From contig JBHHYV010000005.1 of NCBI GenBank assembly GCA_046757685.1, positions 374-64,373 on the forward strand: a DNA stretch of 64,000 nucleotides, written 5' to 3'. Positions within the stretch are counted from its first letter, which is position 1; each line of letters starts with the position of its first letter. Shown here one piece after another: positions 3,122 through 33,873 of this stretch. A program made the translations under genes and the position numbers. The stretch comes from Myxococcota bacterium. Its GTDB lineage: Bacteria > Myxococcota_A > UBA9160 > SZUA-336. The notes under the pieces are model-generated. The model was given only the letters and a program-made list of their open reading frames with translations. It did not search any database and was not told the DNA's origin.

Positions 3122-3147
3122 CTCGGCCCGATCGACAAGGCGGATCT

Positions 3148-3513
3148 TCAGGCCTCGGCGAGCAGACCCCGGATATCCTCGAGCTCCTCGCGAAGCCTTG
3201 CGAGATCCCTGCGATCGGACGCCGAGGGGGAGCCGGGGTCGGCGCCACGCTGCAGCTCCGCGAGACGCTTGCGGGCCCCCTCGATCGTGAAGCGCTCCTG
3301 GTAGAGCAGGTGCTTGATTCGCAGGATCGTCTCGATGTCGCGCCGGCGGTACATGCGCTGGCGGGAGCGGGACTTGGGCGGAATCATCGCCTTGAACTCC
3401 GTCTCCCAGTAGCGCAGCACGTAGGGTTTGACGCCCGTCAGCTTCGCGACCTCTCCGATCCGGAAGTAGCTCTTCTCCGGGACCGACCGCATCGAGCTCT
3501 CGACGGTGTCCAT
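3148..3513 (-). CDS. MerR-family transcriptional regulator
   Basis: N-terminal MerR HTH signature YFRIGEVAKLTGVKPYVLRYWETEF; sits in the conserved position downstream of pheT-ihfA. Confidence 0.85.
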   Translation of the reverse strand: MDTVESSMRSVPEKSYFRIGEVAKLTGVKPYVLRYWETEFKAMIPPKSRSRQRMYRRRDIETILRIKHLLYQERFTIEGARKRLAELQRGADPGSPSASDRRDLARLREELEDIRGLLAEA

Positions 3514-3540: not shown

Positions 3541-3818
3541 CTACTGGTTTAGCGCGTTCTTCAGCACGAGGCTCGGCTTGAAGGTCAGCACGCGCCTCGC
3601 CTCGAGCTGGATCTCCTCGCCGGTCTGCGGGTTGCGGCCCTTGCGCGCGTTCTTCTCGCGCACGATGAAGTTCCCGAAGCCCGAGAACTTGACCTTGCGG
3701 CCCTCGATCAGCGACTCCTTGATCGAGTCGAAGACCGTCTCGACGAGCTCTGCCGACTCCTTCTTCGAGAAGCCGACCCGCTGATAGATGGTCTCGACGA
3801 TGTCTGCCTTCGTCACCT
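3541..3818 (-). CDS. ihfA: integration host factor subunit alpha
   Basis: C-terminal part of track ORF 3541..6222 reads (V)TKADIVETIYQRVGFSKKESAELVETVFDSIKESLIEGRKVKFSGFGNFIVREKNARKGRNPQTGEEIQLEARRVLTFKPSLVLKNALNQ, a typical IHF-alpha/HU fold; GTG start at ~3816-3818. Confidence 0.85.
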
Positions 3819-6251
3819 TGCCACTCCTCCATTCGCGGCCGAGCGCCGCGCCCCCTGAAAGCGCTTCTCCAGCATCCCCTCGATCCGACCGATGAACCGG
3901 GCGACCTCGTCCTCGGTCAATGTCCGGTCTGGACGCTGGAAGATGAGCCGGAACGCCAGGCTCACCCGGCCCTCGCCGACGGCCTCCCCCCCGTATCGGT
4001 CGAAGAGGTCGACGGACACGAGGCTCGAGCCGCCGGCCTTGCGGATCCCGGCGAGAATGTCCCCCGCCGCGCAGTCCGCATCGAAGACCCAGGCCAGATC
4101 GCGGCGTACGGCGGGGTGCCTCGAGACCTCGCGGTAGCGCGGCGGGCGCGTGGCGAGCTGGGGCACACTCTCGAGGTCCAGCTCCAGCACCGCACACGGG
4201 GCCTCGATCCCGAACGCCTCGGCGGTCTCGGGATGAAGCTCGCCCAGCGCCCCCAGGCGATGCTTGCCGCAGCGGATCTCGCACGAGACCCGCGGGTGCA
4301 GATAGGGCTCGGTAGAGCCGGCCTCGAAGACCCCGTCGAGCGAGAGATCCTCGAGGAGCCGCTCCGCGACGCCCTTGAGCTCGAAGAAGCCGGCGGGGCG
4401 GGGGTCGGGCTCCCAGGGCGACTTGCGATCGCCCTGGATCCACACGGCCACCAGCGCCTCTCGCTCCGCGGGCAGCTCCTGGGAGCCGGCCCGTAGGAAG
4501 ACCGGCCCGACCTCGAAGAGCCGCACCTCGTCGACCTGTCGCGCCAGGTTCATCGAAGCCGCCCGAAGCACCGCGGGCAGCAGGCTCGTGCGCAGGCGGT
4601 CCTCGTCCTCGACCAGGGGGTTGAGAAGCGCCAGCGCGGGCCGCCGGGGATCGTCGGCAGCGAGCCGCAGGGCGTCCGCATCCCGGCGATGGCTCACCGG
4701 AAGGCTGAGGATCTCGAAGGCTCCGGACGCCCACAGGCTGTCGCGCGCGCGCTCGATCGTGGGCATCAGGGGCGGAAGCGTCGCCCCACAGAGCGGCGCC
4801 TCGGGCACCGTCGTGGGGATCCGATCGTAGCCGTGGATCCGGGCCACCTCCTCGACCAGGTCGACGCCGATCTGCAGGTCGTTGCGCCAGCTCGGAACCT
4901 GGAAGTGCGCCCGGCCGGGGACGTTCGCCGGCAGCCCCTCGATTCCGAGCCGAGAGAGAACCCCGCGGATCTCGCTCTCCGACAGCTGGGTTCCGAGCAG
5001 CCGGTTGACGACGTCGAACTCCAGCTCGATCGGCCCGGCTGCCGGAGCGGGGTCGCCCTCGGCGGAGACCCGGCCAGGGGCGACCTGACCTCCGGCCAGA
5101 TCGGCGATCAGCCGTGCGGCACGGTCCAGGGCGCGCTCGATCCCCTCGCGGTCGATTCCCCGCTCGAAGCGGTACGAGGACTCGGTCTGAACTCCCAGGC
5201 GCCGCGCGGTGCGCCGGATTCGAGAGGGATCGAAGTGCGCGCTCTCGAGCAGCACATCGCAGGTGCCCGGACGCACCTCGGTCTCGGCGCCCCCCAGGAT
5301 GCCGGCGATCGCGACGGCGCGTTCGCGGTCCGCGATGACCAGGTCGCCGGGAAGCAGGCTGCGGGTCTCGCCGTCGAGCGTCGCGATCTTCTCGTCGGGC
5401 CGCGCGGAACGAACCTCCACCTCTGCGCCGCGTATGCTCGCCAGATCGAAGGCGTGCAGCGGCTGGCCCCACTCCGCCAGCACCAGGTTCGTCACGTCGA
5501 CCACGTTGTTGATCGAACGGTGCCCCGCCGCCTCGAGGCGGGCGCGGAGGGCCTCGGGCGAGGGTCCGACGCGGACCCCGCGGACGACGCGGGCCGCGTA
5601 GCGGGGGCAGCCGGCGCGGTCGGAGATCCGCACACCGATCGCCTGCGCGGCGGGAGCTCCCTGCTCGACCTCGGGAGCGATCTCGGGAAGGCGGAGCTCC
5701 CCCCCGAAGAGCGCCTGGACCTCGCGGGCGATCCCGAGCATCGACGCGCAGTCGCCCCGGTTCGGGGTGATCGCGACGTCGAGAACGGTGTCGCCGCACT
5801 CGATGGCCTCTGCGAGCGGTGCGCCGACCGTGGCATCGGCGTCCAGCACGCGGATCCCGGACTGGTCCTCGCCGAGCCCGAGCTCCCGGTCCGAGCAGAT
5901 CATCCCCTCCGAGACCTGTCCGCGAATCCTGGCTCGCTTGAGCCGCGTGCCGTCCGGCAGGCGCTGGCCGGCGGGGACGAAGGCGATGAGCTGGCCCGCG
6001 GCGACGTTCGGCGCTCCACAGACGACGTGCGCTGGCTCCGCCTGGCCCCAGTCGACCTCGCAGACGCGCAGCCGGTCGGCGTCGGGATGGGCCCGACAGT
6101 CGACGACGCGTCCCACGACGATTCCCGAGAGGTCGGGGCCGCTGCGCTCGAGCGCCTCGACCTCGAGGCCCGCGAGCGTGAGGGTCTCGGCGAGGCGGTC
6201 GGGGGACGGAAGGTCCACCCACTCCGCCAGCCAGCCAAGGGAGACCCTCAC
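3813..6251 (-). CDS. pheT: phenylalanine--tRNA ligase beta subunit
   Basis: Track ORF 3813..6428; conserved PheT N-terminus VRVSLGWLAEWVDLPSPDRLAETLTLAGLEVE begins 59 codons into the ORF. GTG start overlaps the pheS stop (GTGA). Confidence 0.9.
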   Translation of the reverse strand: MRVSLGWLAEWVDLPSPDRLAETLTLAGLEVEALERSGPDLSGIVVGRVVDCRAHPDADRLRVCEVDWGQAEPAHVVCGAPNVAAGQLIAFVPAGQRLPDGTRLKRARIRGQVSEGMICSDRELGLGEDQSGIRVLDADATVGAPLAEAIECGDTVLDVAITPNRGDCASMLGIAREVQALFGGELRLPEIAPEVEQGAPAAQAIGVRISDRAGCPRYAARVVRGVRVGPSPEALRARLEAAGHRSINNVVDVTNLVLAEWGQPLHAFDLASIRGAEVEVRSARPDEKIATLDGETRSLLPGDLVIADRERAVAIAGILGGAETEVRPGTCDVLLESAHFDPSRIRRTARRLGVQTESSYRFERGIDREGIERALDRAARLIADLAGGQVAPGRVSAEGDPAPAAGPIELEFDVVNRLLGTQLSESEIRGVLSRLGIEGLPANVPGRAHFQVPSWRNDLQIGVDLVEEVARIHGYDRIPTTVPEAPLCGATLPPLMPTIERARDSLWASGAFEILSLPVSHRRDADALRLAADDPRRPALALLNPLVEDEDRLRTSLLPAVLRAASMNLARQVDEVRLFEVGPVFLRAGSQELPAEREALVAVWIQGDRKSPWEPDPRPAGFFELKGVAERLLEDLSLDGVFEAGSTEPYLHPRVSCEIRCGKHRLGALGELHPETAEAFGIEAPCAVLELDLESVPQLATRPPRYREVSRHPAVRRDLAWVFDADCAAGDILAGIRKAGGSSLVSVDLFDRYGGEAVGEGRVSLAFRLIFQRPDRTLTEDEVARFIGRIEGMLEKRFQGARRSAANGGVAR

Positions 6252-12854: not shown

Positions 12855-15800
12855 AGCGCAGCCCGGCACTCGACCGACGCCGGTCCGAAGAGACCCTCGA
12901 TCTCGGATACGAGCTCCGCAGTCACGCGGACGCGATGTTGCGCGAGAGAGAGCACGGCCTCGACCGTCCCGAGGCCGAGCTCGATCCGGATCGGGATCTC
13001 CCCCGGCGCCGGATCGAGGAGCGCCCGCAGCCTCTCGAGACGCTCCCGGGTCGCGCGCTTGGCGGGGACGCGAATGCACAGCTCACGCGTCCGCCAGCCC
13101 CAGGCCTCCTCGAGACGAACCACCTCGTCCACCATCAGCTCCGGACGCTCCGTCTCGATCTGGAGGGTGCCCTCGACGAGCAGGGGCTCGGCGGAGCGCA
13201 GCACCTCGGCGTGCTGCTCCCAGACGGCGGGGAAGAGCACCACGGGGACGACCCCCGAGAGGTCCTCGAGGATGCCCCGAGCCATCAGCTGGCCTCGCCG
13301 CGTCTTGGTGGTCTGGATCGCCTGCAGGAGACCTCCCATCCGGACGCGCTGTCCCCGGAGACCCTCGTGGATCTCCCCGGGTCTCACGCTGCACAGGCGT
13401 CCCAGGGTGTCATCGTGCACCTGCAGGGGATGCCCGGTCACGTAGAAGCCCAGGATCTCCTTTTCGCCCGCCAGGCACTGCTCTCGCGGCCACTCCCCCC
13501 GATCCTCGGGAACCGGCTCCGGTGAGGCCAGGTCCCCCGCGAAGAGCGACCCCTGGCCCGAGGTTCGCTCCCGCTCGGCTCGCTGCCCGCGCTCGAGCGC
13601 GGGTCCGACGGCGCTCCAGAGCGACGCGCGAGTGGCCCCGAAGACATCGAACGCGCCGCAGCGCACCAGGCTCTCGACCACGCGTCGATTCACGCGTCCT
13701 CCCTCGACGCGCTCGCAGAAGTCGTAGAGGCCACGGAAGGCCCCGCCCTCCGCGCGCGCCTTGAGGATCGACTCGACCGCCCCTTCCCCCACGTTCTTGC
13801 ACCCACCCAGCCCGAAGCGGATCGCCCGGCCGTCTTGGGCCACGCTGAAGTCGGCGTCGCTCTCGTTCACGCAGGGCGGAAGCACCCGGATCCCGCGCGC
13901 CGCGGCGTCGCGCATGTAGCGGTCCAGCTTGTCGTGCTCCCGCCACTCCGCAGTCATCATGGCCGCGACGAACTCGGCCGGGTAGTGGGCCTTCAGGTAA
14001 GCCGTCTGGTGGGTCAGCAGGGCGTAGGCCGCGGAGTGCGCCTTGTTGAAGCCATAGCCCGCGAACTCGTAGATCTGGTCGAAGAGAGCCTCGACCGGCT
14101 TGCGGGGGTACCCGTTCTGGACGCAGCCCTCGATGAAGTCCTTGCGCTGGCTCTCCATCTCGCTGGCGATCTTCTTGCCCATCGCGCGCCGGAGAAGATC
14201 GCCCTTGCCCAGCGAGAACCCCGCCAGCCGGTTCGCGATCTGGAGCACCTGGTCCTGGTAGAGGATCACCCCGCAGGTCTCGCCCAGGATCTCCTCGAGC
14301 TCCGGCAGCAGGTAGCGTACGGGCTTGTTTCCCTGCCGCCGCTCCGCGAAGTCGTCGGCCATTCCCGACTGCAGGGGCCCGGGGCGGTAGAGCGCCACCA
14401 GCGGGATCAGGTCCCGAAAGTGGCGCGGCCTGCACTTCACCACGCGATCGGTCATGCCGCTCGACTCGAGCTGGAAGACGCCATCGGTGTCTCCGCGGCA
14501 GAGCATGTCGTAGGTGTCGGGATCATCGAGGGGCGCGGCCTCGATGTCGAAGTCGGGATCGCCACGCGCGCGGATTCCGCGGACGGCATGATCGATGATC
14601 GTCAGGGTGCGCAGCCCGAGGAAGTCGAACTTCACCAGGCCCATGGCCTCGGCGGCACGATAGTCGAACTGGGTGACGACCTCCTTGGTCCGCGAGTCCC
14701 GGTAGAGCGGCACGCTCTCCAGCAGCGGGCGCTGCGAGATCACGATTCCGGCGGGGTGCTTTCCGGGGTTGCGGATCTGGCCCTCGAGCGAGCGGGCGAG
14801 CTCGAAGACCTCGCGCGCCTGGGTGTCCCGCGCGAGCAGCACCTGGAGCTCCTTCGAGGCCCTGCGCGCTTCGTCGAGGGTGATGCCGAGCACGTTCGGT
14901 ACGCACTTGGCCAGGCGATCCGCCTCGCCGAAGGACAGGCCCTTGACCCGGGCCACGTCGCGCAGGGCCGCCTTGGCCTGCATGGTCCCGAAGGTCACGA
15001 TCCCGGCGACGCGTCGCCCCTCCTCTCCCTCGCCGTTGTAGCGCTGCTCGACGTAGCGGATCACCTCGGAGCGGCGGTTCATGCAGAAGTCGATGTCGAA
15101 GTCGGGCATCGACACCCGCTCGGGGTTCAGGAAGCGCTCGAAGGGAATCCGGTACTCGACCGGATCGATCTCGACGATGCGCAGGGCCCAGGCGGTAAGG
15201 CTGCCCGCGCCCGAGCCCCTCCCGGGTCCGACGGGAATGCCCCGCTCGCGGGCGAAGCGGATGAAGTCCCAGACGATCAGGAAGTAGCCCGAGAACCCGC
15301 AGCTCCGAATCACCTCGAGCTCGTAGGAGAGCCTCTCCAGGTAGGGACGATGGCGGGGCTCCGAGTCCAGGGGCGCGTCCGGATCTCCGCAGAGCCGCTC
15401 GGCGAGCCCCCGCCGCGCGGTTCGGGCCAGGTAGGAGTCGGGCGAGCTCCCGGGCGGGAGGGGGAACTCGGGGAGCTGGGTCCGGCCCATCTCGAGCTCG
15501 AAGCGGCAGCGCTCGGCGACCTCGAGAGTGTTCGAGACCGCCTCGGGAAGGTCGTGGAAGACCTCGAGCATTTCGGAGGCGTCCTTCACGTAGAAGCCCT
15601 TGCCGGTGAACTGAAAGCGGTCCGGGTCGTCGAGCGTCTTGCCGGTCTGGACGCAGAGCAGGGTCTCGTGGGGGTGCGCGTCGGCCGCCTCGAGGTAGTG
15701 GGCGTCGTTGGTGGCCACCAGTGGAATCCCCAGGTCCCGATGCATGCGCAGCAGCTCGGCGTTCACCTCGTCCTGGGCCGGAATCCCATGGCGCTGCAGC

Positions 15801-19863: not shown

Positions 19864-21405
19864 CGGGACCAGCCTTGCAAAGGCGTTCTGGAGCGCCCCA
19901 CGCCTGCCCGCCGGATCCGCGGGAAGCGCCAGGAGAGGAGTCGCATCGAGCTCGGGAATCCCGCTGCGCAACCTCCCGGACTCGGCCGCTCGCCGCGCCT
20001 GGAGCGTGGTGGCGAGCGGCACGATCGGTCGGCCCGAACCTCGGATCAGGCTCGAGATCGCCGCCCCCAGCGTCCGCGCCGACTCGTCCGGAGAGCCGTC
20101 GAGAACCGCCAGCCCACCGAGGGCCCCGTGACTCGCCACGTCGAGCAGCGGCGCGAAGAGCGGGTCGGCCGAGACACCCACCAGACGCAGGCACAGCTCT
20201 TCTCCGAGGGGCAGCTCCGCGAGGGTTCCGACCTGGGCCAGGGTCGAGCCCGAGGGGTCGCGCGCGGGGCGGCGCCGGGCGAGGCCACCCTCCGCCTCGA
20301 GTGCGTCCATCAGGCAGGCGAGTGCCGTCTCGGACGAGGGAAGCACCAGCACCTTGAGCTCGCGGCCCGGGCGCGTGCGCTGCGAGTCCATCCAGTCGCC
20401 GATGCGACGCACCTGCTTGGGAGTGAGCAGCTCCGCGGGCGCGGGGGTGGTGTCTCGCACCTCGGGCGCCGGGCTCACCACCGCGAGCGCTCCGCGCGCC
20501 ATCAGGTCCTGGATCGCCCGCAGGACCTGGTAGTCCGGGGCCGGACAGCGATCGACGATGCTCGAGAGCGGCGCGTCGCTCGCGGCGGTATCCAGGACCT
20601 GCCGCCAGAGCGGATGGACGATATCGGGAAGCCTGGAGCGCGAGATCCGGAGCCGCAGGCGTGCGGCCTGGGGTGGGAGCTTCGGGCGCAGCCGGTCCCA
20701 CTCGTCCAGCTGTCGCGCCCCTTCGAGCAGGAGGGCGCGGGTGGAGCGCTCGATCCGCTGCTCGACCTCGACGGGAGTGGGCGAGAACTCGAAGTGTCCG
20801 GTGCGCCAGCTGAGCAGGCGGAAGAGGGCCTTCTCTCCGGTCAGCGACAGGCCCTCGGCGGTGCGCACACTCGCCGAGACGACCTGACCCGCGTCCAGGG
20901 CCAGGCTTCCGGCTCCCGCGTCGGAGGCCCCGGAGACCGCCAGGAGGCCCGTGCGACGGCTCCCCAGGAAGAGCTGGAGCAGGTCCGGGAGAGAGAGCTG
21001 CTCGAGACTTCCCGCGACCTCGCTCTGCGCGCGCGACGGCAGGGGATCGGGCGCGGGATCTCGCATGCGCTCGAGCTGGTCGCCGAGCTCCGCGTCGCCC
21101 CAGGGCGGCTCGAGGACTCCGTCCCGGACGTCCATCCCGACCGGCGTCTCGAGCACGTCGTCGACGAGGAAGAGGAAGCGCGCGTCGCGGGTGCGGGGAT
21201 TGCCACGGAGGATCTCCGCGAGTCGTGCACCGTCGATGATGGGCAGATCGATCGGACACACGATCAGCGCGGGCACGCGCTCGAGAGCCATCTCGAGCGC
21301 CGCAGCCCCGTGAACCGCCCGGTCGATGATGTGGCCGCCCGCGGCGCAGGCCTCGGAGAGGCGCTTGCCTCGGCCCGGGTCGTCGTCGGCGAGCAGGATT
21401 CGCAT
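19861..21405 (-). CDS. response regulator: REC domain + DUF4388 (PATAN-type) + uncharacterised C-terminal domain
   Basis: 514 aa; REC N-terminus MRILLADDDPGRGKRL...LIVCPIDLP; DUF4388 signature GSLEQLSLPDLLQLFLGSRRTGLLAVSGAS...GEKALFRLLSWRTGHFEF; ~250 aa C-terminal region unassigned. Confidence 0.75.
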
Positions 21406-21411
21406 GGTGGC

Positions 21412-23232
21412 CTAGCGCCCCATCCCGAGCCCGACCTCGGCGCGCAGCCGAAACGCCAGGTGTTCGACCAGAGCGGGATCCGAGGCGTGGAAGAGCCGGC
21501 GCTGGCCGTCCGCCTCGGGCGGTCCGGCGATCAGCGCATAGCCCGGAGCCTCACCGAAGCGGACGATCCAGCTGACGCTGGGATCGACACCGGTCGGGGG
21601 CGACAGGGCGTGCAGGTTCGGTCCCGAGGGCAGGGTGTCGCCGTCCACGGCTACGAAGACCTCGGTCGCGGCCTCGACCGCCCCGAGCGCCGCCAGGGGT
21701 GCCAGGAAGCCCGCCCGCTCCGCACCCGGCGAGAGGAAGAGCATCCCCGAGTCGCCGGGTCGGCTGACCAGCTCCGAGATCAGGATCTCCGCCGCGGAGC
21801 AGACCAGCTCCGCAGGAGCCGGCGCGCCGTGCTGGATCAGGCGGTCACAGAGCTCGGGCAGGGGCGCTGCGAGGTCGAGGCCGAGCTTGCGCAGCAAGCT
21901 GTGACGGTCTGCCTCCGCCCGCTGGCGTGCCCCATCGAGCAGCTCCTCGATGCTCGAGCCGTCCACCGGAAAGCTGGCGCTCCCGAGGCACGCGCCGAGG
22001 CCGGCGGTCCGGGTTTGCGCCTCGGAGTGCCGGGTCCCGATCCGGCTCGCGATGCGCCGCTTCAGGATCGTGCCTCCCAGTGGATCGGCCTCGGCCACCA
22101 GGATCCAGAGCTCCTCGCCCTGGCCGCGCGTCAGCAGGTCGGTCGAACGCATGCAGCTGCGCACCGCGTCCTCGAGCGCCACGCGCGAAGAGACCTCGCA
22201 CTCGCTCGCATCCACGCACAGCAGACCCAGGCTGCGGCCGAAGCGCTGCGCCTTGTGCAGCTCGAGCTGGGCGACCGCCTTCAGGAAGGCGAGGTCCGGA
22301 AGAGGCGGCTCGCCCGGGCTCTGGCCGGAAGGCTCGGAGCTGGGAGCCTCCAGCTCGCGGAGCGTGGGCTCCTCGATGCGCACGAGACGTTCGAGGGCCA
22401 GTGCGCCGAGCTCTCCGAGTCGAGCGCAGGTGCGCTCGGCCGTCCGCGGATCGCGCGTGCTGACCGGGTCCGCCGCCGCCATGTGCAGGACGGCCACGGC
22501 GAAGAGCACTCCTCCCCGCACACAGGGTGCGAGCAGCCGCATGCCCTCGTCTCCACGCGGACCCAGTGCCGTCGGCTCCCCGGCCCGCGCCCGGGCCAGC
22601 AACGAGGGCGGGAGCTCCGGGTCGACGCGCGAGGAGCCTTCGGGCAGCACCGCGGCGCGGCGAGGCAGCCCGGTCTCGGGATGGATCAGCCAGATCGCGC
22701 CGTCGCTCGCTCCCGCCTCGATCGTGTAGAGCTCGAGCAGCTTGCGGGCGACCGCATCGGGATCGCCCAGGGTGAACATGGCGGTCGCGCGCTCGTAGAG
22801 CGAGAGCTGACCCATGAACTCGAGGTTCTCGGAGACCAGGCGCGCATGCTCCTCGCGCAGGCGACGCTGGCGGAGGACTCCTTCGATGGCGGCGATCAGG
22901 CCGTCGGAGTCGATGGGCTTGAGCAGGTAGTCGGCGGCCCCGCAGCGCATGGCCGCGACGGCGGAACGAACGTCCCCGACGGCCGTGATGACCACGATCT
23001 CCTGGTCGGGCCAGCGCTCCCGAACGCGCTGGACCACCTCGACCCCGTTCATGTCAGGCATGACCAGGTCGGTCAGCACCACGTCGAAGCGCTCTCGCTC
23101 GAGCGTCGCGAGCGCCTCGGGACCGCTCGCGGCGAGAGTGACGCCGTAGCCCGCCGCGGAGAGCACCTCCTCGAGGTGCGAGCGAAAGTAGAGCTGGTCG
23201 TCGACCGCCAGAATCCGCGCCTCTGGAGTCAT
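21412..23232 (-). CDS. response regulator: REC + degenerate GGDEF-like domain
   Basis: 606 aa; REC domain (ILAVDDQLYFRSHLEE...FDVVLTDLVMPDMNGVEVV); degenerate diguanylate-cyclase-like motif TRGQGEELWILVAEAD in place of GG(D/E)EF. Confidence 0.7.
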   Translation of the reverse strand: MTPEARILAVDDQLYFRSHLEEVLSAAGYGVTLAASGPEALATLERERFDVVLTDLVMPDMNGVEVVQRVRERWPDQEIVVITAVGDVRSAVAAMRCGAADYLLKPIDSDGLIAAIEGVLRQRRLREEHARLVSENLEFMGQLSLYERATAMFTLGDPDAVARKLLELYTIEAGASDGAIWLIHPETGLPRRAAVLPEGSSRVDPELPPSLLARARAGEPTALGPRGDEGMRLLAPCVRGGVLFAVAVLHMAAADPVSTRDPRTAERTCARLGELGALALERLVRIEEPTLRELEAPSSEPSGQSPGEPPLPDLAFLKAVAQLELHKAQRFGRSLGLLCVDASECEVSSRVALEDAVRSCMRSTDLLTRGQGEELWILVAEADPLGGTILKRRIASRIGTRHSEAQTRTAGLGACLGSASFPVDGSSIEELLDGARQRAEADRHSLLRKLGLDLAAPLPELCDRLIQHGAPAPAELVCSAAEILISELVSRPGDSGMLFLSPGAERAGFLAPLAALGAVEAATEVFVAVDGDTLPSGPNLHALSPPTGVDPSVSWIVRFGEAPGYALIAGPPEADGQRRLFHASDPALVEHLAFRLRAEVGLGMGR

Positions 23233-23271
23233 GCCTCTCCTGGGCCGCGGGGGGGGAGGCCCGCTGACAGC

Positions 23272-23760
23272 CTACATCTTGTACTTGCCGAAATCCCCAG
23301 GATCCATCTCCCGGAGCCGGCGCTTCCATCCCTCTTTGTCGGTAGGCGCGGCGATTTCTTGCGCCTCCGGGTCGGCCCGGGCGAGCACCTTCGAATCGAC
23401 ACGAATTGGGGCCTCGAGGCGGACGGCCAGCGCGATGGCGTCGGAGGGCCGCGCGTCGAGGCGTTGCTCGACGCCGGCCGCGTCGCGCAGGACGAGCTCC
23501 GCGTAGTAGGTGTCGTCCCGCAGGTCGACGATCTCGACCGCTTCCAGCTCGGCCGAGAGCGTGCGCACGACGTCGCGCAGCAGATCGTGGGTGAGAGGCC
23601 GGGGAAACCGAGTTCCCTGGAGCTCACGGGCGATCGCGGCGGCCTCGACCATGCCGATCGCGATCGCCAGGTGAGGCCCCTCGTCGGACTCGAGAACGAG
23701 CACCGCCCCCTGGCGCTCGGCATCGACCGTGAGCCCTGCAATCGTCATCGTGAGCCGCAT
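23272..23760 (-). CDS. bifunctional nuclease (DUF151/BFN) family protein
   Basis: 162 aa; LAIAIGMVEAAAIARELQGTRFPRPLTHDLLRDVV...YAELVL, typical DUF151. Confidence 0.7.
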   Translation of the reverse strand: MRLTMTIAGLTVDAERQGAVLVLESDEGPHLAIAIGMVEAAAIARELQGTRFPRPLTHDLLRDVVRTLSAELEAVEIVDLRDDTYYAELVLRDAAGVEQRLDARPSDAIALAVRLEAPIRVDSKVLARADPEAQEIAAPTDKEGWKRRLREMDPGDFGKYKM

Positions 23761-23798
23761 GGCATCCCTACCCTACCGATCCCTACCTTACCGAATGG

Positions 23799-25184
23799 TT
23801 ACCGAATCGGGGCGGCCTCCGTTGGCCGGCTCCGAGCGCGACCGAGCAGGGAGTGGGGCGTCGCACCGGTGATCTCGACCTCGAGGAGCTCCCCCGGCGC
23901 GGCGGCCCCGCACGCGCTGAAGTTCACGATCCGGTTGTAGGGGCAGCGTCCCGAGACCTGCGGGGGGCCGTGGCGGCTCGGACCCTCCACCAGGACGGTC
24001 GCCCGCTCTCCCACCCGGGACCGGTGGGCGGCGAGCGTCAGCTCCGCCTGGAGCTCCTGAAGCTCGCTCAGCCGCTGTGCGGCGACCCGGGCCGGCACCT
24101 CCAGGGCCTTGCGGCGCAGCGCGGCAGTGCCCGGCCGGGGGGAGTACTTGAACGAGAAGCTATCGACGAAGCCCACCCTCCGGCAGAGGCTCAGGGTCTG
24201 CTCGAAATCCGAGTCCGACTCGCCCGGAAAGCCCACGATCCAGTCCGTGGTGATGCAGAGGTCCGGTCGTGCGAGGCGCAGCTGGTCGATCAGGGACAGG
24301 TAGGTCTCCCGGGTGTAGCGGCGATTCATCGCCCGGAGCACCGCCGACGATCCCGACTGGACGGGCAGGTGCAGGTGGGGGCAGAGCTCGGGGATCTCGC
24401 GGTAGGCGCGAATCAGGCTCTCGTCCATGAAGGCGGGATGGGGGCTGGTAAAGCGGACCCGCTCGATCCCGGGCACGCCGGCCACCCGCCGGAGCAGCTC
24501 GCTGAAGCCCACCTCCCCGCTCGTCCGCCCGGGCCTGGGCCGGCCGTAGGCATTCACGGTCTGCCCGAGCAGCGTGACCTCGCGAACCCCGCGTGCGGCC
24601 AGACGCCGCACCTCGTCCTCGATCTCGTGGCTGGGCCTGGATACCTCGCGTCCGCGGGTCCGGGGCACCACGCAGAAGCTGCAGAAGAGGTCGCAGCCCT
24701 CCATCACGGTCACGAAGGCCCTGCCCGGCGAGAGCGGGGGGAACTCGGGATGCCGCTCCGGCAGCTCGAAGCGCGCGGTCGGGTCGTCGCCCCAGTCGAC
24801 CCGCTGGGTCCGGACGCGGCCCCGGGCGGCCCGGATCATCGCGGGCACGTGGCGGAGGTTCTGGGAGCCGAAGACGAAGTCCAGGGCGGGGAAGCGCCGC
24901 AGCAGCTCCGCGCCCTCCTGCTGGGCGACGCAGCCACCGACGCCGATCACCAGGTCGGGGCGTTCCCGCTTGCGCTCACACAGCCCCCCGAGCTCGGAGT
25001 AGAGCTTGTGCTCGGCCCGGTCGCGCACCGAGCAGGTATGGACCAGGTACACGTCCGCGGAGGCAGGGTCCGCCGCCGGGCGGAGCCCCTCGTGCCAGAG
25101 GAGGTTCTCGATCTTCTCTGCGTCGTGCTGGTTCATCTGGCAGCCGAAGACGCGCAGGTGGAAGGAGCCGCTCATCCCGGCCAC
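23799..25184 (-). CDS. miaB: tRNA (N6-isopentenyladenosine-37) methylthiotransferase, MiaB-like radical SAM MTTase
   Basis: 461 aa; UPF0004 N-domain (FHLRVFGCQMNQHDAE), radical SAM CDLFCSFCVVP, C-terminal TRAM domain. Confidence 0.85.
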   Translation of the reverse strand: MAGMSGSFHLRVFGCQMNQHDAEKIENLLWHEGLRPAADPASADVYLVHTCSVRDRAEHKLYSELGGLCERKRERPDLVIGVGGCVAQQEGAELLRRFPALDFVFGSQNLRHVPAMIRAARGRVRTQRVDWGDDPTARFELPERHPEFPPLSPGRAFVTVMEGCDLFCSFCVVPRTRGREVSRPSHEIEDEVRRLAARGVREVTLLGQTVNAYGRPRPGRTSGEVGFSELLRRVAGVPGIERVRFTSPHPAFMDESLIRAYREIPELCPHLHLPVQSGSSAVLRAMNRRYTRETYLSLIDQLRLARPDLCITTDWIVGFPGESDSDFEQTLSLCRRVGFVDSFSFKYSPRPGTAALRRKALEVPARVAAQRLSELQELQAELTLAAHRSRVGERATVLVEGPSRHGPPQVSGRCPYNRIVNFSACGAAAPGELLEVEITGATPHSLLGRARSRPTEAAPIR

Positions 25185-25346: not shown

Positions 25347-25374
25347 TTGACATCCGTGCACGAGGGTGCATAAT
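25347..25374 (+). promoter_or_regulatory. near-consensus sigma70-type promoter (TTGACA-N16-CATAAT)
   Basis: ggtTTGACAtccgtgcacgagggtgCATAATgagcc; striking in a ~70% GC background; faces away from both flanking minus-strand genes. Confidence 0.4.
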
Positions 25375-25381
25375 GAGCCTA

Positions 25382-25512
25382 CCAAGTCCTATGGAGAAGG
25401 CGGCGGAGACGGCATTTCTTGTTTGAAATGTCCAACCTCTCACCCCCCACAAGTCGCCGCCGCCCTCTCCGACCCATCTGACGGCCCCCGGTGGACGCAC
25501 CGGGGGCCGTTC
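25382..25512 (+). ncRNA. candidate small RNA (promoter-to-hairpin transcript, ~130 nt)
   Basis: Predicted TSS ~7 nt after the -10; transcript ends at the perfect 11-bp GC hairpin 25483-25508. Contains a locally AT-rich segment (ttcttgtttgaaatgtcc). Only tiny ORFs (11 and 17 codons) without SD. Confidence 0.3.
25483..25508. terminator. perfect 11-bp GC stem-loop (GGCCCCCGGTG-gacg-CACCGGGGGCC), possible bidirectional terminator
   Basis: Seen directly. ~78 nt downstream of the vWA gene stop (minus strand) and at the end of the candidate plus-strand sRNA. No U-tract, as is common in high-GC genomes. Confidence 0.35.
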
Positions 25513-25585
25513 GACGTTCGCGATCCCCGTGCGAGCGGTGCAACGGCTCCGCGGCTCCGCCCTCGGGGCGCCGGGAGACGACCGC

Positions 25586-26995
25586 TCAGAGGATCAGGCG
25601 ATCGACCAGGCGGGTCAGCTGCTTCAGGTTGCGGCACTCCTCGGCGACATCGGTGTAGGGCACGTACTTGTCCATGACGCTGTCGCCGAAGCCCCAGGCC
25701 CCGGGGGACTCGGGGTTGATCCAGATGACGTTCTTGGCCTTCCGGTGGATCTCGCGCAGGCACCAGGTGCGCGGGTCGTTGTAGTTGTTCCGAGCGTCTC
25801 CGATCACGACCACGGTGGTGCGGTTGTCGACCGCGGAGAGGTAGTCCCGCCAGAAGGTATGGAAGGCCATCCCGAAGTTGGAGCGCGTGTACACGTTGAT
25901 CACGTCCCCGCCCTCGAGGGCCTCGTCGATCGCGATCTGGACGTCGTGGTCCCGGAAGAGCTGGGTCACCTCGCCCAGCTCCGCCACGAAGACGAAGCTG
26001 CGGACCTTGGTGAAGCACTCCTGCAGGCTGTAGACGAACTGCAGCATGAACCGGCAGACGTTCGCAACCGAGCTGGAAATGTCACAAATGACGACCAGCT
26101 TCGGGCGTTCCTTCCTTCGATGCTTGAAGATCAGGTCGAAAGGGACGCCGCCGTGCCCCAGGTTCCGGCGCAGGGTCTGCTTGAGGTCGAACTTGCCCCG
26201 GCGCTCCCGCTTGCGCCGTAGGGACACGATGTTCTTGAGCTTCTGCGCGAGCCGGGTCACCAGGTCGCGCATCCTGCGGATGTCCTCCTCCGTCAGGTTG
26301 TAGAAGCTCTTCTCCTTGAGGCTCTCTCGGCGGAAGCGCTCGAGGTAGTCGTGGTTCTGCTTGTCGAGCTCCTGCTCCGCGTAGCGGCGGATCGAGCGCC
26401 GCAGGGCCTCCTGGACCGCCTTCATCAGGTTCTCGAGCTGCTCGATCTCCTCGTCGCCCATCCCCTGCTCGCGCAGCCGCTCCACCAGGCTCTCGAGGTC
26501 GCCGGACGCCTGGTCCAGACCCATCTGCTCGAGCATCCGGCGCGAGAAGAAGCCGATCTGGAGCATGTTCTGGATCCGCTCGATGCCGGCCTCCTCGCCC
26601 GCCTGCCGGATCAGCTGCTCGAGCAGGTTCGAGTCCATCGAGAGCATGGCCTGGGCCAGCTCGGAGAGGTCGACGTCCATGTTCTCGAGCATCTCGCGGA
26701 GGGCCTCGAGCAGCGCGTCGAGGTCGCCTTCGCCGCCCATCCCCGCCACCGCCTGGGCCAGCTGCTCGTTCAGGACATCGTGGAACCCCGACCAGAACAG
26801 GTCGAAGAGCCGGTCGTAGGTGGGGATGTCGTCGCCCCGCTTGACCATCGAGGTGCGCAGCGCGTCCCGGAAGAGCTCGCGGTCCTCGAGAGGCAGCTCG
26901 TCGAGGGACCGGAAGGCGTCGATCGCCTCCGAGACCGAGACCCGGACACCCGACTTTCGGAGCAGATTCGTGAACTCGACGATCTTCTTCTGCAT
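25586..26995 (-). CDS. vWA-domain protein, CoxE-like (MoxR-associated)
   Basis: 469 aa; C-terminal vWA/MIDAS region KLVVICDISSSVANVCRF...VVVIGDARNNYNDP; coiled acidic N-terminal region; directly downstream of a MoxR ATPase. Confidence 0.8.
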   Translation of the reverse strand: MQKKIVEFTNLLRKSGVRVSVSEAIDAFRSLDELPLEDRELFRDALRTSMVKRGDDIPTYDRLFDLFWSGFHDVLNEQLAQAVAGMGGEGDLDALLEALREMLENMDVDLSELAQAMLSMDSNLLEQLIRQAGEEAGIERIQNMLQIGFFSRRMLEQMGLDQASGDLESLVERLREQGMGDEEIEQLENLMKAVQEALRRSIRRYAEQELDKQNHDYLERFRRESLKEKSFYNLTEEDIRRMRDLVTRLAQKLKNIVSLRRKRERRGKFDLKQTLRRNLGHGGVPFDLIFKHRRKERPKLVVICDISSSVANVCRFMLQFVYSLQECFTKVRSFVFVAELGEVTQLFRDHDVQIAIDEALEGGDVINVYTRSNFGMAFHTFWRDYLSAVDNRTTVVVIGDARNNYNDPRTWCLREIHRKAKNVIWINPESPGAWGFGDSVMDKYVPYTDVAEECRNLKQLTRLVDRLIL

Positions 26996-27008
26996 GCGGC
27001 GCCCCGAG

Positions 27009-27998
27009 CTAGTGGAGCACGCTCTTCTTGACGCCCGAGGGGGTCGCCGGCGGCGCGACGACGGGCCGGCGCGCGGCCTCCTCGGCGCTCTTCTTCGCGA
27101 GCAGCTTCGACAGCTCCGCCTGGGCCTTGTGGATGTCGCCCTCGTACTTGAGGATGATGTTCATCGTTCCGGCCACGAGCTCCGCCTCGAGGTGGTCCGC
27201 GTTCAGCGTCATCAGCGCGCGGGCCCAGTCGAGCGTCTCCGAGATCGAGGGACTCTTCTTGAGATCCAGGTCCCGGATCCGCTGCACCAGCTGCACGATC
27301 TCCTCGGCCAGTCGCCCGTCGATGCCCGGCACCTTCGTGTTCAGGATCTGGATCTCGAGCTCCTCGCTGGGGTAGTCGATCCAGAGGTGCAGGCAGCGAC
27401 GCTTGAGGGCGTCGGTCATCTCGCGCGCCTCGTTCGAGGTCAGGAAGACGAGCGGAATGTGACGCGCCTCGACGGTCCCGATCTCGGGCACGCTGACCGT
27501 GAAGTCGGAGAGGATCTCGAGCAGGAAGGCCTCGAACTCGGGGTCCGACTTGTCGACCTCGTCCACCAGCAGCAGGATCGGCTCCGGAGAGGTGATCGCC
27601 TTCATCAGCGGTCGGGGGACGATGAAGCGCTCGCTGAAGAAGACGTCGTCCTGGGCGGCGATCCGCTCGGAGGCCTCCTTCATGCTTCCGGCGCCTAAGA
27701 TCACCTCGCCGATCTTGTCGCGCAGCATCTGGGTGTAAAGCAGCTGCTTGGAGTACTCCCACTCGTAGAGGGCCTTGGACTCGTCCAGTCCCTCGTAACA
27801 CTGGAGCCGGATCAGCGGCCGTCCCAGGGCGCTCGAGACCACCTTGGCGAGCTCCGTCTTGCCGACGCCCGCGGGCCCCTCGACCAGGACCGGCTTCTGC
27901 AGCCGGTTGGCCAGGAACACGACCGTGGCGATCTTCTTGTCACAGACGTAGCCCTCTTCCCCGAGCCGCTTCTCGACGTCCTGTACCGAATCAAACAT
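27009..27998 (-). CDS. MoxR-family AAA+ ATPase (CoxD-like)
   Basis: 329 aa; Walker A VLVEGPAGVGKTELAKV, Walker B ILLVDEVDKSDPE, sensor/arginine-finger regions typical of MoxR. Confidence 0.85.
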   Translation of the reverse strand: MFDSVQDVEKRLGEEGYVCDKKIATVVFLANRLQKPVLVEGPAGVGKTELAKVVSSALGRPLIRLQCYEGLDESKALYEWEYSKQLLYTQMLRDKIGEVILGAGSMKEASERIAAQDDVFFSERFIVPRPLMKAITSPEPILLLVDEVDKSDPEFEAFLLEILSDFTVSVPEIGTVEARHIPLVFLTSNEAREMTDALKRRCLHLWIDYPSEELEIQILNTKVPGIDGRLAEEIVQLVQRIRDLDLKKSPSISETLDWARALMTLNADHLEAELVAGTMNIILKYEGDIHKAQAELSKLLAKKSAEEAARRPVVAPPATPSGVKKSVLH

Positions 27999-28597: not shown

Positions 28598-29857
28598 TCA
28601 GCTCATCAGGCTCAACAGGTGCCCCAGCTTGTCGCGCTTGGTCCTGAGGTAGTGCAGGTTCTTCTCGTTCGGTCGGACCTCGAGCGGCACCCGCTCGACG
28701 ATGTGGAGGCCGTAGCCCTCGAGGCCCGCGCGCTTGGCCGGGTTGTTGGTGAGCAGCCGGATCTTGCGGACGCCCAGGTTGACGAGGATCTGGGCCCCGA
28801 CGCCGTAGTCGCGAAGATCGGCCTGGAATCCGAGTCGCTCGTTGGCCTGGACCGTGTCGAGCCCCTCCTCGTCCTGCAGGGCGTAGGCTCGGATCTTGTT
28901 CGCGATTCCGATTCCCCGCCCTTCCTGCCGCAGGTAGACCAGTACTCCCGTCCCGGCCTCCTGGATCATCTTGAGGGCGGTCTGCAGCTGGTCTCCGCAG
29001 TCGCAGCGAATCGAGCCGAAGGCGTCGCCGGTGAGGCACTCGCTGTGCATTCGAACCAGCGTGGGCTCATCGGGCTGGACGGTACCGCGGATCAGCGCCA
29101 CGTGATCGATGTGGTCGATCTCGTTCTTGAAGACGATGGTCCGGAAGTCGCCAAACTCGGAGGGCAGGTTCGACTCGGCCGCCCGGTGCACCAGGCTCTC
29201 GGTGTGGAGCCGGTACTTGATCAGGTCGGCGATCGAGAGAATCCGCAGGCCGTGCTTCTGGGCGAAGGCCCGCAGGTCCGGCATCCGCGCCATCGTGCCG
29301 TCCTCGTTCATGATCTCGCAGATCAGGCCGGCGGGCTTGAGACCCGCCAGGCGCGCGAGGTCGACGCTGCCCTCGGTCTGCCCCGAGCGCCGCAGCACGC
29401 CCCCGGGCTTGGCGATCAAGGGGAAGACGTGGCCGGGCCGCACCAGGTCGGTCGGCCGGGTCATGGAGCCGATCGCCACGGAGACCGTCCGGGCCCGGTC
29501 CGCCGCCGAGATGCCGGTCGTGACTCCCTCGCGCGCCTCGATCGAGACCGTGAATGCGGTGCCGAAAGGGGTCTGGTTCTGGGCATCGGGCACCATCATG
29601 GGAAGCTCGAGCTCCCGGGCCCGTTCCGGCGTCAGGGCAAGACAGACCAGCCCACGGCCGTGGGTCGCCATGAAGTTGACCGCCTCGGGAGTGACCTTCT
29701 CCGCCGCCATGCACAGGTCGCCCTCGTTCTCGCGATCCTCGTCGTCGACCAGGATCACCATCCTGCCGGCGCGGATGTCCTCGATGGCGTCGAGCACGGC
29801 GCTCGAGAACGCGTGGATCTCCTCCGCCTGCACCGCCTGCGTCTGCCGACTGCTCAT
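28598..29857 (-). CDS. ribBA: bifunctional 3,4-dihydroxy-2-butanone-4-phosphate synthase / GTP cyclohydrolase II
   Basis: 419 aa; DHBP synthase half ([21 protein letters not shown]) fused to GTP cyclohydrolase II half ([19 protein letters not shown]). Confidence 0.9.
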
Positions 29858-31693: not shown

Positions 31694-33873
31694 GCGCGGC
31701 GCGCGCGCACTGCCTCGAGCACCCCGCTCGCGGCCTCGGGAATCGGCGTTCCCGGACCGAAGACCCGCGCCACGCCCAGCGCCTGCAGACGCGCGTGATC
31801 CCGCGAGGGAATGACCCCGCCGCAGATCACGACGATGTCTCCCGCCCCCTCCGCGCGCAGCGCGTCGATCAGCTGGGGTACCAGCGTCCGGTGGCCCGCG
31901 GCCAGGGTCGAGACCCCGACCACGTGCACGTCGTTCTCCACCGCCTGGCGCGCCGCCTCCTCGGGGGTCTGGAAGAGGGGGCCGATGTCGACGTCGAAGC
32001 CGAGATCGGCGAAGGCGCTGGCGATGATCCGCGCCCCCCGGTCGTGGCCGTCCTGGCCGAGCTTGACCACCAGCATTCGCGGGCGCCGGCCCTCGTCGCG
32101 TTCGAAGGCCTCCACCTCCTTCTGGATTCGCTCCAGCGCCTCGTCGTCGCCGAACTCGGCGCGGTAGACACCCGAGACACCCCGCGTCTCGGCCCGGTGG
32201 CGGCCGAAGACGTCCTCGAGCGCCTGGGAGATCTCGCCGACCGTCGCCCGCGCGCGCGCCGCCTCGAGGGCGGCCTCGAGCAGGTTGGCCTCGCCGCGTG
32301 CCGCGTCTCGAAGCGCGTCGAGCGAGCGTCGCCAACGCTCTGCATCCCGGCGAGCGCGTACCTCGTGGAGCCTGCGAATCTGGGCCTCGCGTACCGCGCG
32401 GTTGTCGATGTCGAGCACCTCGACCGGCTCGTCGCTCTCGGGCGCATAGCGGTTCACGCCCACGATCACCTCCTCGCCTCGATCGATGCGCGCCTGCCTG
32501 CGGGCGGCAGACTCCTCGATTCGCATCTTCGGCATTCCCGACTCGATCGCCGCGGTCATGCCGCCCTGCGCCTCGATCTCGTCGATCAGCTGCTGCGCCG
32601 CGTGCGCGAGCGAGTGGGTCAGGCTCTCGACGTAGTAGCTTCCACCGAGGGGGTCGATCACCGAGGGGATCCAGGTCTCCTCGGCCAGGATCAGCTGGGT
32701 GTTCCGCGCGATGCGCGCGGAGAAGGGCGTGGGCAGGGCCAACGCCTCGTCGAAGGAGTTGGTATGCAGCGACTGCGTCCCTCCCAGCACGGCGGCCAGC
32801 GCCTCGAGCGTCGTGCGGACGATGTTGTTGTAGGGGTCGCGCGCCGTCAGGCTGACCCCGGAGGTCTGGCAGTGGGTGCGCAGCATCGAGGAGCGCGGGT
32901 CGCGCGGCCCGAAAGGCTCGATCAGCCGGGACCAGAGCAGGCGGGCCGCGCGCAGCTTCGCGATCTCCATGAAGAAGTTCATGCCGATCCCGAAGAAGAA
33001 CGAGAGCCGGGGTGCGAAGGCATCGATCTCGAGCCCGCGGCCCAGAGCCGCCCGGACGTACTCGAGCCCGTCCGCCAGCGTGAAGGCCAGCTCCTGGACC
33101 GCGGTCGCGCCGGCCTCCTGGATGTGGTAGCCCGAGATCGAGATCGAGTTGTAACGGGGCATGTGCGCGGCGGTGTACTCGATGATGTCCGCCACGATCC
33201 GCAGGCTGGGGGAAGGCGGGTAGATGTAGGTGTTGCGGACCATGAACTCCTTGAGGATGTCGTTCTGGATGGTCCCCGAGAGCTGCTCCTGCGGCACGCC
33301 CTGCTCCTCGGCTGCCACCACGTAGCAGGCGAGCGTGGGAAGCACCGCCCCGTTCATGGTCATCGAGACCGACATCTGGTCGAGGGGGATGCCGTCGAAG
33401 AGCATCTTCATGTCCTCGACCGAGTCGATGGCGACGCCCGCGGCGCCGACGTCGCCCTCGACGCGCGGATGGTCCGAGTCGTACCCCCGGTGGGTGGCCA
33501 GGTCGAACGCCACCGAGAGCCCCTTCTGGCCCGCCTCGAGGTTCTTGCGGTAGAAGGCGTTCGACTCCTCGGCGGTCGAGAACCCGGCGTACTGCCGCAC
33601 CGTCCAGGGCCGGTTGGCGTACATCGTGGCGCGAGGACCCCGCACGAAGGGAGCGAGCCCGGGAAAGGTATCCAGGTCCTCGAGGCCCTCGAGATCGGCC
33701 TCGGTGTAGAGGGGCCGGATCCGGAACCCCTCGGGCATCTCGCGCTCGAGAGCTTCCAGGCTCCGCCCGCGCAGCTCCCTCTCCGCCTGCTTGCGCCAGG
33801 CCTCCCCGTCGGTCTGGGGGTGGGTGGTCTGGGGGTGGGTGGTCTGGGGGTGGGTCCCGTCTCGCTTCGTCAT
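31690..33873 (-). CDS. methylmalonyl-CoA mutase (large subunit with C-terminal B12-binding domain)
   Basis: 727 aa; mutase catalytic core plus DxHxxG-type B12 domain ([30 protein letters not shown]). N-terminus carries the tandem [15 protein letters not shown] repeat. Confidence 0.9.
33811..33855. repeat. 3 x 15-bp perfect tandem repeat (ggtctgggggtgggt) encoding THPQT x3 at the mutase N-terminus
   Basis: Seen directly at ~33811-33855. Confidence 0.8.

Follow-up and report, generated by a model that had tools for sequence, protein, structure and literature searches.

Positions 25347-25521 on the plus strand probably constitute an independent small RNA (sRNA) gene of ~135 nt, in which a C-rich strand likely acts as a seed for pairing with mRNA. 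Unless another locus is named, positions refer to the window, meaning the whole 64,000-nucleotide stretch of DNA that was analyzed. We have high confidence that a conserved, independent sRNA gene is present, its transcript being predicted from the sequence; the base-pairing seed mechanism and action in trans are both inferred, and the chances of the seed mechanism are judged about even. The initial annotation had proposed an independent plus-strand sRNA running from a promoter to a hairpin, and this proposal is supported by conservation of the core, the promoter, and the terminator as well as by covariation in the helices. The RNA is the first of its family to be described; the family is uncatalogued, although of an already known kind (sRNA), and appears to span at least ~140 uncultured bacterial relatives as well as a few contigs of phages. 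To our knowledge, RNA regulation in Myxococcota is almost undescribed apart from Pxr, and no RNA regulator is known from the uncultured lineages, to which most of the phylum belongs. The features of the locus and the viral homologs are collected in Table 1.

Table 1. Coordinates of the sRNA gene, its neighboring genes, and the homologs on viral contigs (positions of the viral homologs are those of their own contigs).
Feature	Position	Strand	Details
−35 hexamer TTGACA	25347-25352	+	TTGAC(A/T/G) also kept upstream of the core in homologous loci
−10 hexamer CATAAT	25369-25374	+	16-nt spacer from the −35 hexamer
Predicted transcription start (A)	25381	+	7 nt past the −10 hexamer; inferred from the usual sigma70 spacing
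Conserved RNA core	25388-25476	+	Span matched by covariance models R1 (103.6 bits, E 1e-21) and R2 (82.7 bits)
P1, 5' strand: GGAGA-A-GGCGGCGG-A-GAC	25393-25410	+	Pairs with 25453-25470; compensatory changes
P2 hairpin: GGCAUUUC, loop UUGUUU, GAAAUGUC	25411-25432	+	Loop varies (5-6 nt) among homologs
G-free C/U-rich single strand CAACCUCUCACCCCCCACAA, putative seed	25433-25452	+	Predicted unpaired
Invariant 16-mer AACCUCUCACCCCCCA	25434-25449	+	Within the 20-nt strand 25433-25452
P1, 3' strand: GUC-G-CCGCCGCC-C-UCUCC	25453-25470	+	Pairs with 25393-25410
Terminator hairpin, then T-poor tail: CGACGTTCGC	25480-25511	+	14-bp stem, GACG loop
miaB (context)	23799-25184	−	Divergent from the RNA gene; MiaB equivalog TIGR01574, 452 bits against a cut-off of 355
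VWA_CoxE protein gene (context)	25586-26995	−	Convergent with the RNA gene
MoxR-type AAA+ gene	27009-27998	−	Beyond the VWA gene
L206 homolog	3133-3212	+	54 bits; 42% GC contig
L202 homolog	13616-13722	−	41.5 bits; 52% GC contig
L226 homolog	1515-1598	−	41 bits; same position as in L206

Promoter, fold and terminator of the RNA

Promoters were searched on both strands of the 64-kb window with the E. coli sigma70 consensus pattern TTGACA-N16-18-TATAAT and a threshold of at least 10 of 12 matching positions. TTGACA-N16-CATAAT, with 11 of 12 matches, was the sole site at or above this threshold on either strand. Windows simulated with a first-order Markov model contained a mean of 0.16 such sites, and a site with 11 matches arose in 0 of 100 simulations, which bears out the earlier claim that the element is highly non-random. 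The promoter is on the plus strand while the neighboring miaB and VWA genes are both on the minus strand, as had been annotated. In 98 of 117 distinct homologous loci, the core was preceded by a promoter with at least 10 of 12 matches, and when 105 homologous promoters were anchored on CATAAT, each position of this hexamer was 86-100% conserved. The usual form among homologs was TTGAC(A/T/G)-N16-18-CATAAT, often with an A-rich tract just upstream of the −35 element. The distance from promoter to core varied from ~2 to 120 nt, which indicates that the promoter is itself under selection rather than carried along by the core, and that the 5' leader is variable. Since no second site with at least 10 matches exists in the 64 kb, the ordinary promoters of the source organism must depart from the E. 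coli sigma70 consensus, and the sRNA promoter is unusually consensus-like. Moreover, a perfect 7-bp inverted repeat, CTGTGGA-N7-TCCACAG, lies across the −10 element of the sRNA promoter in some homologs (L008, ~3800-3840, minus strand, and the similar loci L088 and L094), where it might serve as the operator through which the sRNA is regulated; the repeat is absent from the promoter in the window.

The 140-nt plus strand gave a predicted folding energy of −73.3 kcal/mol (z = −7.0 against shuffles). The fold also brought out a second, larger inverted repeat (25393-25410 with 25453-25470) around a small hairpin, which was absent from the initial annotation; these are the helices P1 and P2. In an alignment of 81 distinct sequences, standard pairs occupied 94.9% of the cells as against 39-52% when the 3' partners were slid by 1-3 columns, a difference to be read with the alignment having been fitted to the covariance model, which favors the structure somewhat. 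Changes on both sides were seen in eight pairs (for example U-A, C-G, and A-U at one position of P1), the observed covariation was reached by no shuffle, and RNAalifold agreed. The P1 and P2 helices are therefore supported by compensatory changes, which answers a check by covariation that had been suggested at the outset. Two subtypes were evident among the homologs, differing in the outer helix and the 3' tail. Within the window, the covariance models matched only once (25388-25476), and the sequence of the terminator hairpin likewise occurred a single time.

The stem of the terminator hairpin comprises 13 perfect pairs (25481-25493 with 25498-25510), or 14 with the basal G-U pair. The perfect stem and 4-nt loop on the plus strand reported earlier thus stand, while the reported stem length of 11 bp proved too short. 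An equivalent uninterrupted hairpin of at least 10 bp was present at the same position in 99 of 121 distinct homologs, compared with 5 of 121 shuffles. These stems included 84 distinct sequences, so that the structure is conserved and the sequence is not. Among the homologs, the 8 nt after the stem contained a mean of 3.7 T, and the 8 nt before it a mean of 1.1 A; the tail of the window's own terminator is weak, with 2 T in 8 nt.

The RNA was assigned to the plus strand because of the promoter, the T tract after the hairpin, and an excess of G-U over A-C pairs (76 and 16 cells of the core, respectively, when read as the plus strand). Minimum free energy did not tell the strands apart, and the G-rich minus strand folded slightly better on average. 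This last point bears on a reading in which the elements work only in cis, either with the hairpin as the terminator of the VWA/MoxR operon and interfering convergent transcription, or with the conserved segment as the minus-strand 5' leader of miaB. The hairpin is at most 75 nt from the VWA stop codon and abuts it in some loci, the RNA always adjoins miaB, and the minus strand folds well too; indeed, the hairpin may serve as a terminator for the convergent VWA operon as well. However, neither version explains the conserved plus-strand promoter, and both the T tract and the G-U excess are on the plus strand. The convergent MoxR/VWA pair is usual at RNA loci, but the RNA persists where a gene-sized segment intervenes before the VWA gene (e.g., L002 and L005). 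The 160 nt nearest to miaB showed no conservation, and the phage copies described below have neither neighbor. A role limited to cis is thus considered very unlikely, and we retain the independent plus-strand gene as the preferred reading.

Judged by its sequence, the interval is non-coding. No coding gene follows the promoter on the plus strand. The plus-strand open reading frames (ORFs) of 11 and 17 codons exist just as first described, and short ORFs also occur on the minus strand, so that a small protein made from one of them was considered as an alternative. Its likelihood is negligible, as the homologs do not conserve these ORFs, many of them have ACG in place of the start codon ATG of the 11-codon ORF, loop indels of 1-3 nt shift every reading frame, and substitutions occur as compensating pairs and not at third codon positions. 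A cmscan search of the interval against all 4227 families of Rfam 15 (E ≤ 10) returned only chance matches to miRNA, lncRNA, and snoRNA families, and ARAGORN found no tRNA or tmRNA in the window. The Rfam scan had been proposed earlier as a check, and its outcome agrees with the prior view that the RNA is not a tmRNA, SRP RNA, 6S RNA, or riboswitch. RNase P RNA and the cis-regulators of Rfam likewise gave no match. Searches of the full-text literature on Myxococcota sRNAs, miaB-linked motifs, and the motif string turned up no description of this RNA.

The only Rfam match in the window to reach a gathering score was V_AS9, a Vibrio antisense RNA (29626-29715, plus strand; 51.8 bits against a cut-off of 50). 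It is antisense inside ribBA, which encodes a DHBP synthase and GTP cyclohydrolase II (28598-29857, minus strand), and most likely reflects conservation of the coding sequence and not an RNA gene.

Conservation and distribution among uncultured bacteria

The GC content of the interval is 0.54-0.59 compared with ~0.65-0.79 in the flanking genes, consistent with the local AT enrichment noted before. Relatives were sought through MiaB, using one genome per species, and the records recovered carry the labels of Myxococcota, Deltaproteobacteria, or Myxococcales metagenome-assembled genomes (MAGs). There was no close relative among the loci recovered in this way, the best MiaB identity being 70%. 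Segment 25390-25513 was nonetheless 78-93% identical in 20 loci, which were all those with a MiaB identity of at least 56% that extended upstream of miaB (L037, which begins within miaB, was left out). The core (25388-25476) was 80-93% identical in these loci where MiaB was 56-70% identical, which means that the RNA is more conserved than its protein-coding neighbors. Conservation in relatives had been listed among the checks for the candidate, and the interval passed it. In all 20 loci, the segment was on the strand opposite to miaB, at 200-400 nt upstream of that gene, and the covariance models found the RNA in 20 of 20 miaB loci of the clade. Neither model gave a match upstream of miaB in more distant taxa (e.g., Polyangiaceae and Actinomycetota).

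A pattern made from the most conserved stretch, which includes the seed, retrieved at least 120 further metagenome loci. The same arrangement, in which the RNA is flanked by miaB, by the VWA gene on its other side, or by the two together, was seen in 119 of the 120 motif-selected metagenome loci listed, and miaB adjoined the RNA in essentially every locus whose contig extended far enough. Long assemblies with the RNA include CAVPRM010000002.1 (2.8 Mb), CBDFGR010000001.1, and Ga0187894_10000004. Across the loci examined, the RNA was single copy and fixed in position. Multiple dispersed copies, as of REP or MITE-like elements, were not observed: the window held one copy, and the listed metagenome loci were confined to one syntenic locus with that sole exception. 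The covariance model can be used to annotate the family directly in metagenomes.

Several other features of the window were recorded. The VWA and AAA+ pair (25586-27998, minus strand), whose linkage with the RNA and miaB holds throughout the clade, was nearest to the NCBIfam families MadC and MadB, but scored far too low for either (151 bits where the cut-off is 600, and 359 bits where it is 475, respectively). An ORF of 1270 amino acids without a Pfam domain (20128-23940, plus strand) is convergent with miaB and overlaps its 3' end as mechanically listed. A perfect tandem repeat with three copies of a 15-nt G-rich unit, GGTCTGGGGGTGGGT, is located at 33811-33855 (plus strand) at a junction of long ORFs.

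Homologs on viral contigs

Viral contigs (IMG/VR) were scanned for the invariant strand, and matches were checked with the covariance model. Three contigs (L206, L202, and L226) carried genuine, diverged homologs of the RNA. L206 is a fragment of a T4-like phage and encodes a gp45 sliding clamp, a gp44 clamp loader, and a homing endonuclease of the SegE type. Synteny was seen between L206 and L226, with the RNA between homologous flanking genes (in L206, a WYL_2 gene and a phrog_1574 gene). In all three homologs, the sequence of P2 was wholly replaced and still paired, and the strand (A)ACCUCUCACCCCCCA was intact. L206 and L226 kept the P1 sequence GGAG(A/U)GGCGG/CCGCC(U/A)CUC(C/U), followed immediately by a U run, for which reason P1 looks like the terminator of both copies. 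In L202, the outer part of P1 was altered (CCAGAGGCGG/CCGUCUCUGG) with pairing retained. That P2 was replaced while the fold and the strand were kept suggests that selection acts on the clamp and the strand, and the viral copies show horizontal spread of the RNA. The RNA was present in none of 80 related phage loci recovered through a neighboring phage protein; the phage copies are thus sporadic. A BLAST comparison of the core with GenBank phage records gave one chance-level match only, and an Rfam scan of both phage copies (E ≤ 10) gave no match.

Two further motifs were observed outside this set. On a viral contig with 65% GC (L201, 672-746, plus strand), the 18-mer CCAACCTCTCACCCCCCA is in the loop of a perfect 12-bp hairpin with a T run after it, and a gene for a serine recombinase (Resolvase) begins ~60 nt downstream. 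This motif could be a distant family member, a relic of an attachment site, or a chance occurrence. L153 (1109-1174, minus strand) was the only motif-selected metagenome locus of the 120 listed that fell outside the miaB/VWA synteny. Here, a 22-mer is inside a 6-bp stem without P2, with a complementary G-rich run, GGGGGTGGGG, before it, and a tRNA-Met gene (1005-1078, minus strand) ~50 nt after it. Kinship of the L201 and L153 motifs with the sRNA family is uncertain.

These copies raise the alternative that the element is mainly a mobile or recombination module, such as an attachment site for a phage or a small element made of inverted repeats, and not a regulator. The diverged copies on viral contigs, the position of the L201 hairpin before a recombinase gene, the tRNA-Met gene adjoining the L153 motif, and the inverted repeat formed by P1 would all fit such a module. 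Against this, the element occurs only once in the bacterial clade, always at the same locus, and has a conserved promoter and terminator of its own, nearly all of the listed metagenome loci share the miaB/VWA position, the RNA is missing from the related phage loci, and the L206 and L226 copies have no integrase beside them. We therefore regard this alternative as highly improbable, and a regulatory RNA remains the preferred reading of the locus.

A broader proposal would join the bacterial and viral copies. According to it, the strand (A)ACCUCUCACCCCCCA, clamped by GGAGAGGCGG/CCGCCUCUCC, would be a horizontally mobile RNA module shared by the uncultured clade and phages, which we consider doubtful. 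If this were true, the extreme conservation over 42-68% GC would reflect pairing with, or mimicry of, a near-universal partner, and the module could be an anti-Shine-Dalgarno mimic that targets either the ribosome or the regions of many genes where translation starts. The module would then serve phages to seize control of host translation, and the L153 (tRNA-Met) and L201 (serine recombinase) copies would be further members of a wider class. Independently of this proposal, the diverged copies on two syntenic contigs, one of them T4-like, suggest that phages may borrow the host seed; if they do, this would give a tangible way into the study of host takeover in organisms for which culture is not yet possible.

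The exposed strand and comparison with known small RNAs

Of the 21 sequences recovered through miaB, 20 had the identical 16-mer, and the remaining one had one extra C. Only these 21 sequences gauge the invariance of the seed without bias, as the metagenome set was selected by a pattern that contains it. The C-rich strand was predicted to be unpaired with a probability of 0.997 in the window copy and a mean of 0.94 over the 21 sequences, compared with 0.30 for the rest of the RNA. It is positioned as an internal 3' bulge between P2 and P1 and contains ACCUC(U), followed by six C. The ACCUC(U) element resembles the core of the anti-Shine-Dalgarno sequence.

We propose the following mode of action. 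The strong sigma70-type promoter would start transcription near 25381, and the transcript would fold as a clamp in which the long helix P1 encloses the hairpin P2. This clamp would keep open the 20-nt, G-free C/U-rich strand that bears AACCUCUCACCCCCCA, and the GC-rich intrinsic terminator hairpin would end the RNA. The exposed strand would be the seed and would pair in trans with several mRNAs at G-rich segments, among them G runs and GGAGG/GAGAGG sequences of the Shine-Dalgarno type. Such pairing would block ribosome binding or change mRNA stability. Taken together, the RNA's own promoter, scaffold, exposed invariant strand, and intrinsic terminator give it the anatomy of a trans-acting sRNA. 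Long, strictly conserved seeds are typical of multi-target regulators. The more than 140 members, near-consensus promoter, invariant 16-nt strand, and fixed position beside miaB probably mark a core, multi-target regulator. Two features count against a seed, namely that an invariance of 16 nt or longer exceeds what many seeds need and would suit a protein or another partner too, and that the strand lies in an internal bulge and neither at the 5' end nor in a hairpin loop.

The main rival to seed pairing is a protein or ribonucleoprotein partner. The RNA would then be as described, but its C-rich strand, perhaps together with P1, would bind this partner for sequestering or scaffolding and would not pair with mRNA. 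At least 16 nt are invariant, the GGCGG/CCGCC of P1 is kept even in the phage copies with 42% GC, and the phage copies could titrate a host factor. Scans of the window and of related loci, which gave no mRNA target, also fit this rival. When duplex energies were computed along both strands of the window, the best match of the seed other than to itself was −29.8 kcal/mol, compared with −28.9 to −34.4 kcal/mol for ten shuffled seeds. In 1.5 Mb of mostly syntenic related loci, 10-mers complementary to the seed occurred 17 times versus ~47 expected naively, with no recurrence at a homologous position. On the other hand, sequence-specific RNA-binding proteins usually read 4-8 nt and not 16, no candidate protein co-varied with the RNA beyond the neighbors that travel with it, and the RNA is without the repeated motifs of the kind that titrate CsrA or Hfq. 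A protein partner is on balance judged unlikely, and seed pairing is kept as the preferred reading.

In the 6C sRNA, C-rich single-stranded regions bind G-rich sites in mRNA (PMC6486639). Like the 6C (B11) RNA of Actinobacteria, the present RNA is a small, highly conserved RNA of high-GC bacteria that ends in a terminator hairpin (PMC6486639). 6C functions through unpaired cytosines in a row, which base-pair with G-rich sites in mRNA, and comparable pairing is proposed here. The two differ in phylum and genomic neighborhood and have no sequence or covariance-model similarity (Rfam, E ≤ 10). Furthermore, the C runs of 6C are in hairpin loops, whereas a single C/U-rich 20-nt 3' bulge between helices is found here. 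Identity with 6C was thus ruled out on the lack of a covariance-model match and the position of the C run.

Comparable unpaired motifs, C-rich or CCUCC-like, occur in the RoxS/RsaE RNAs of Firmicutes and the CcsR or 'cuckoo' RNAs of Alphaproteobacteria, where they act as mimics of the anti-Shine-Dalgarno sequence and cover ribosome binding sites. These RNAs regulate multiple targets, and their seeds are strongly conserved. They are different families from other taxa and have several repeated C-rich motifs, whereas the present RNA has one long motif. The present RNA gave no Rfam match.

Within the myxobacteria, Pxr of Myxococcus is transcribed from a sigma54 promoter with an enhancer region, is located downstream of pxrR, and forms three stem-loops (PMC5684412). 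It has been described from Myxococcus, Corallococcus, and Stigmatella species (PMC5684412). The present RNA is, like Pxr, a myxobacterial sRNA in which the 5' stem-loops are conserved and the terminal stem-loop at the 3' end varies more, these being the features reported for Pxr (PMC5684412). It differs in its sigma70-type promoter, its place between miaB and the VWA gene, its architecture of a clamp plus a bulge, and its occurrence in lineages of uncultured MAGs. The promoter, the neighbors, and the architecture rule out that it is Pxr.

Prophage-encoded base-pairing sRNAs, such as DicF, are also known. The bacterial gene described here is chromosomal and ancestral in the clade and its phage copies are sporadic, unlike in DicF-type cases. 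The L206 and L226 homologs, which are likewise borne by phages, keep a host-type seed, which suggests that the phage may use a regulatory seed of its host.
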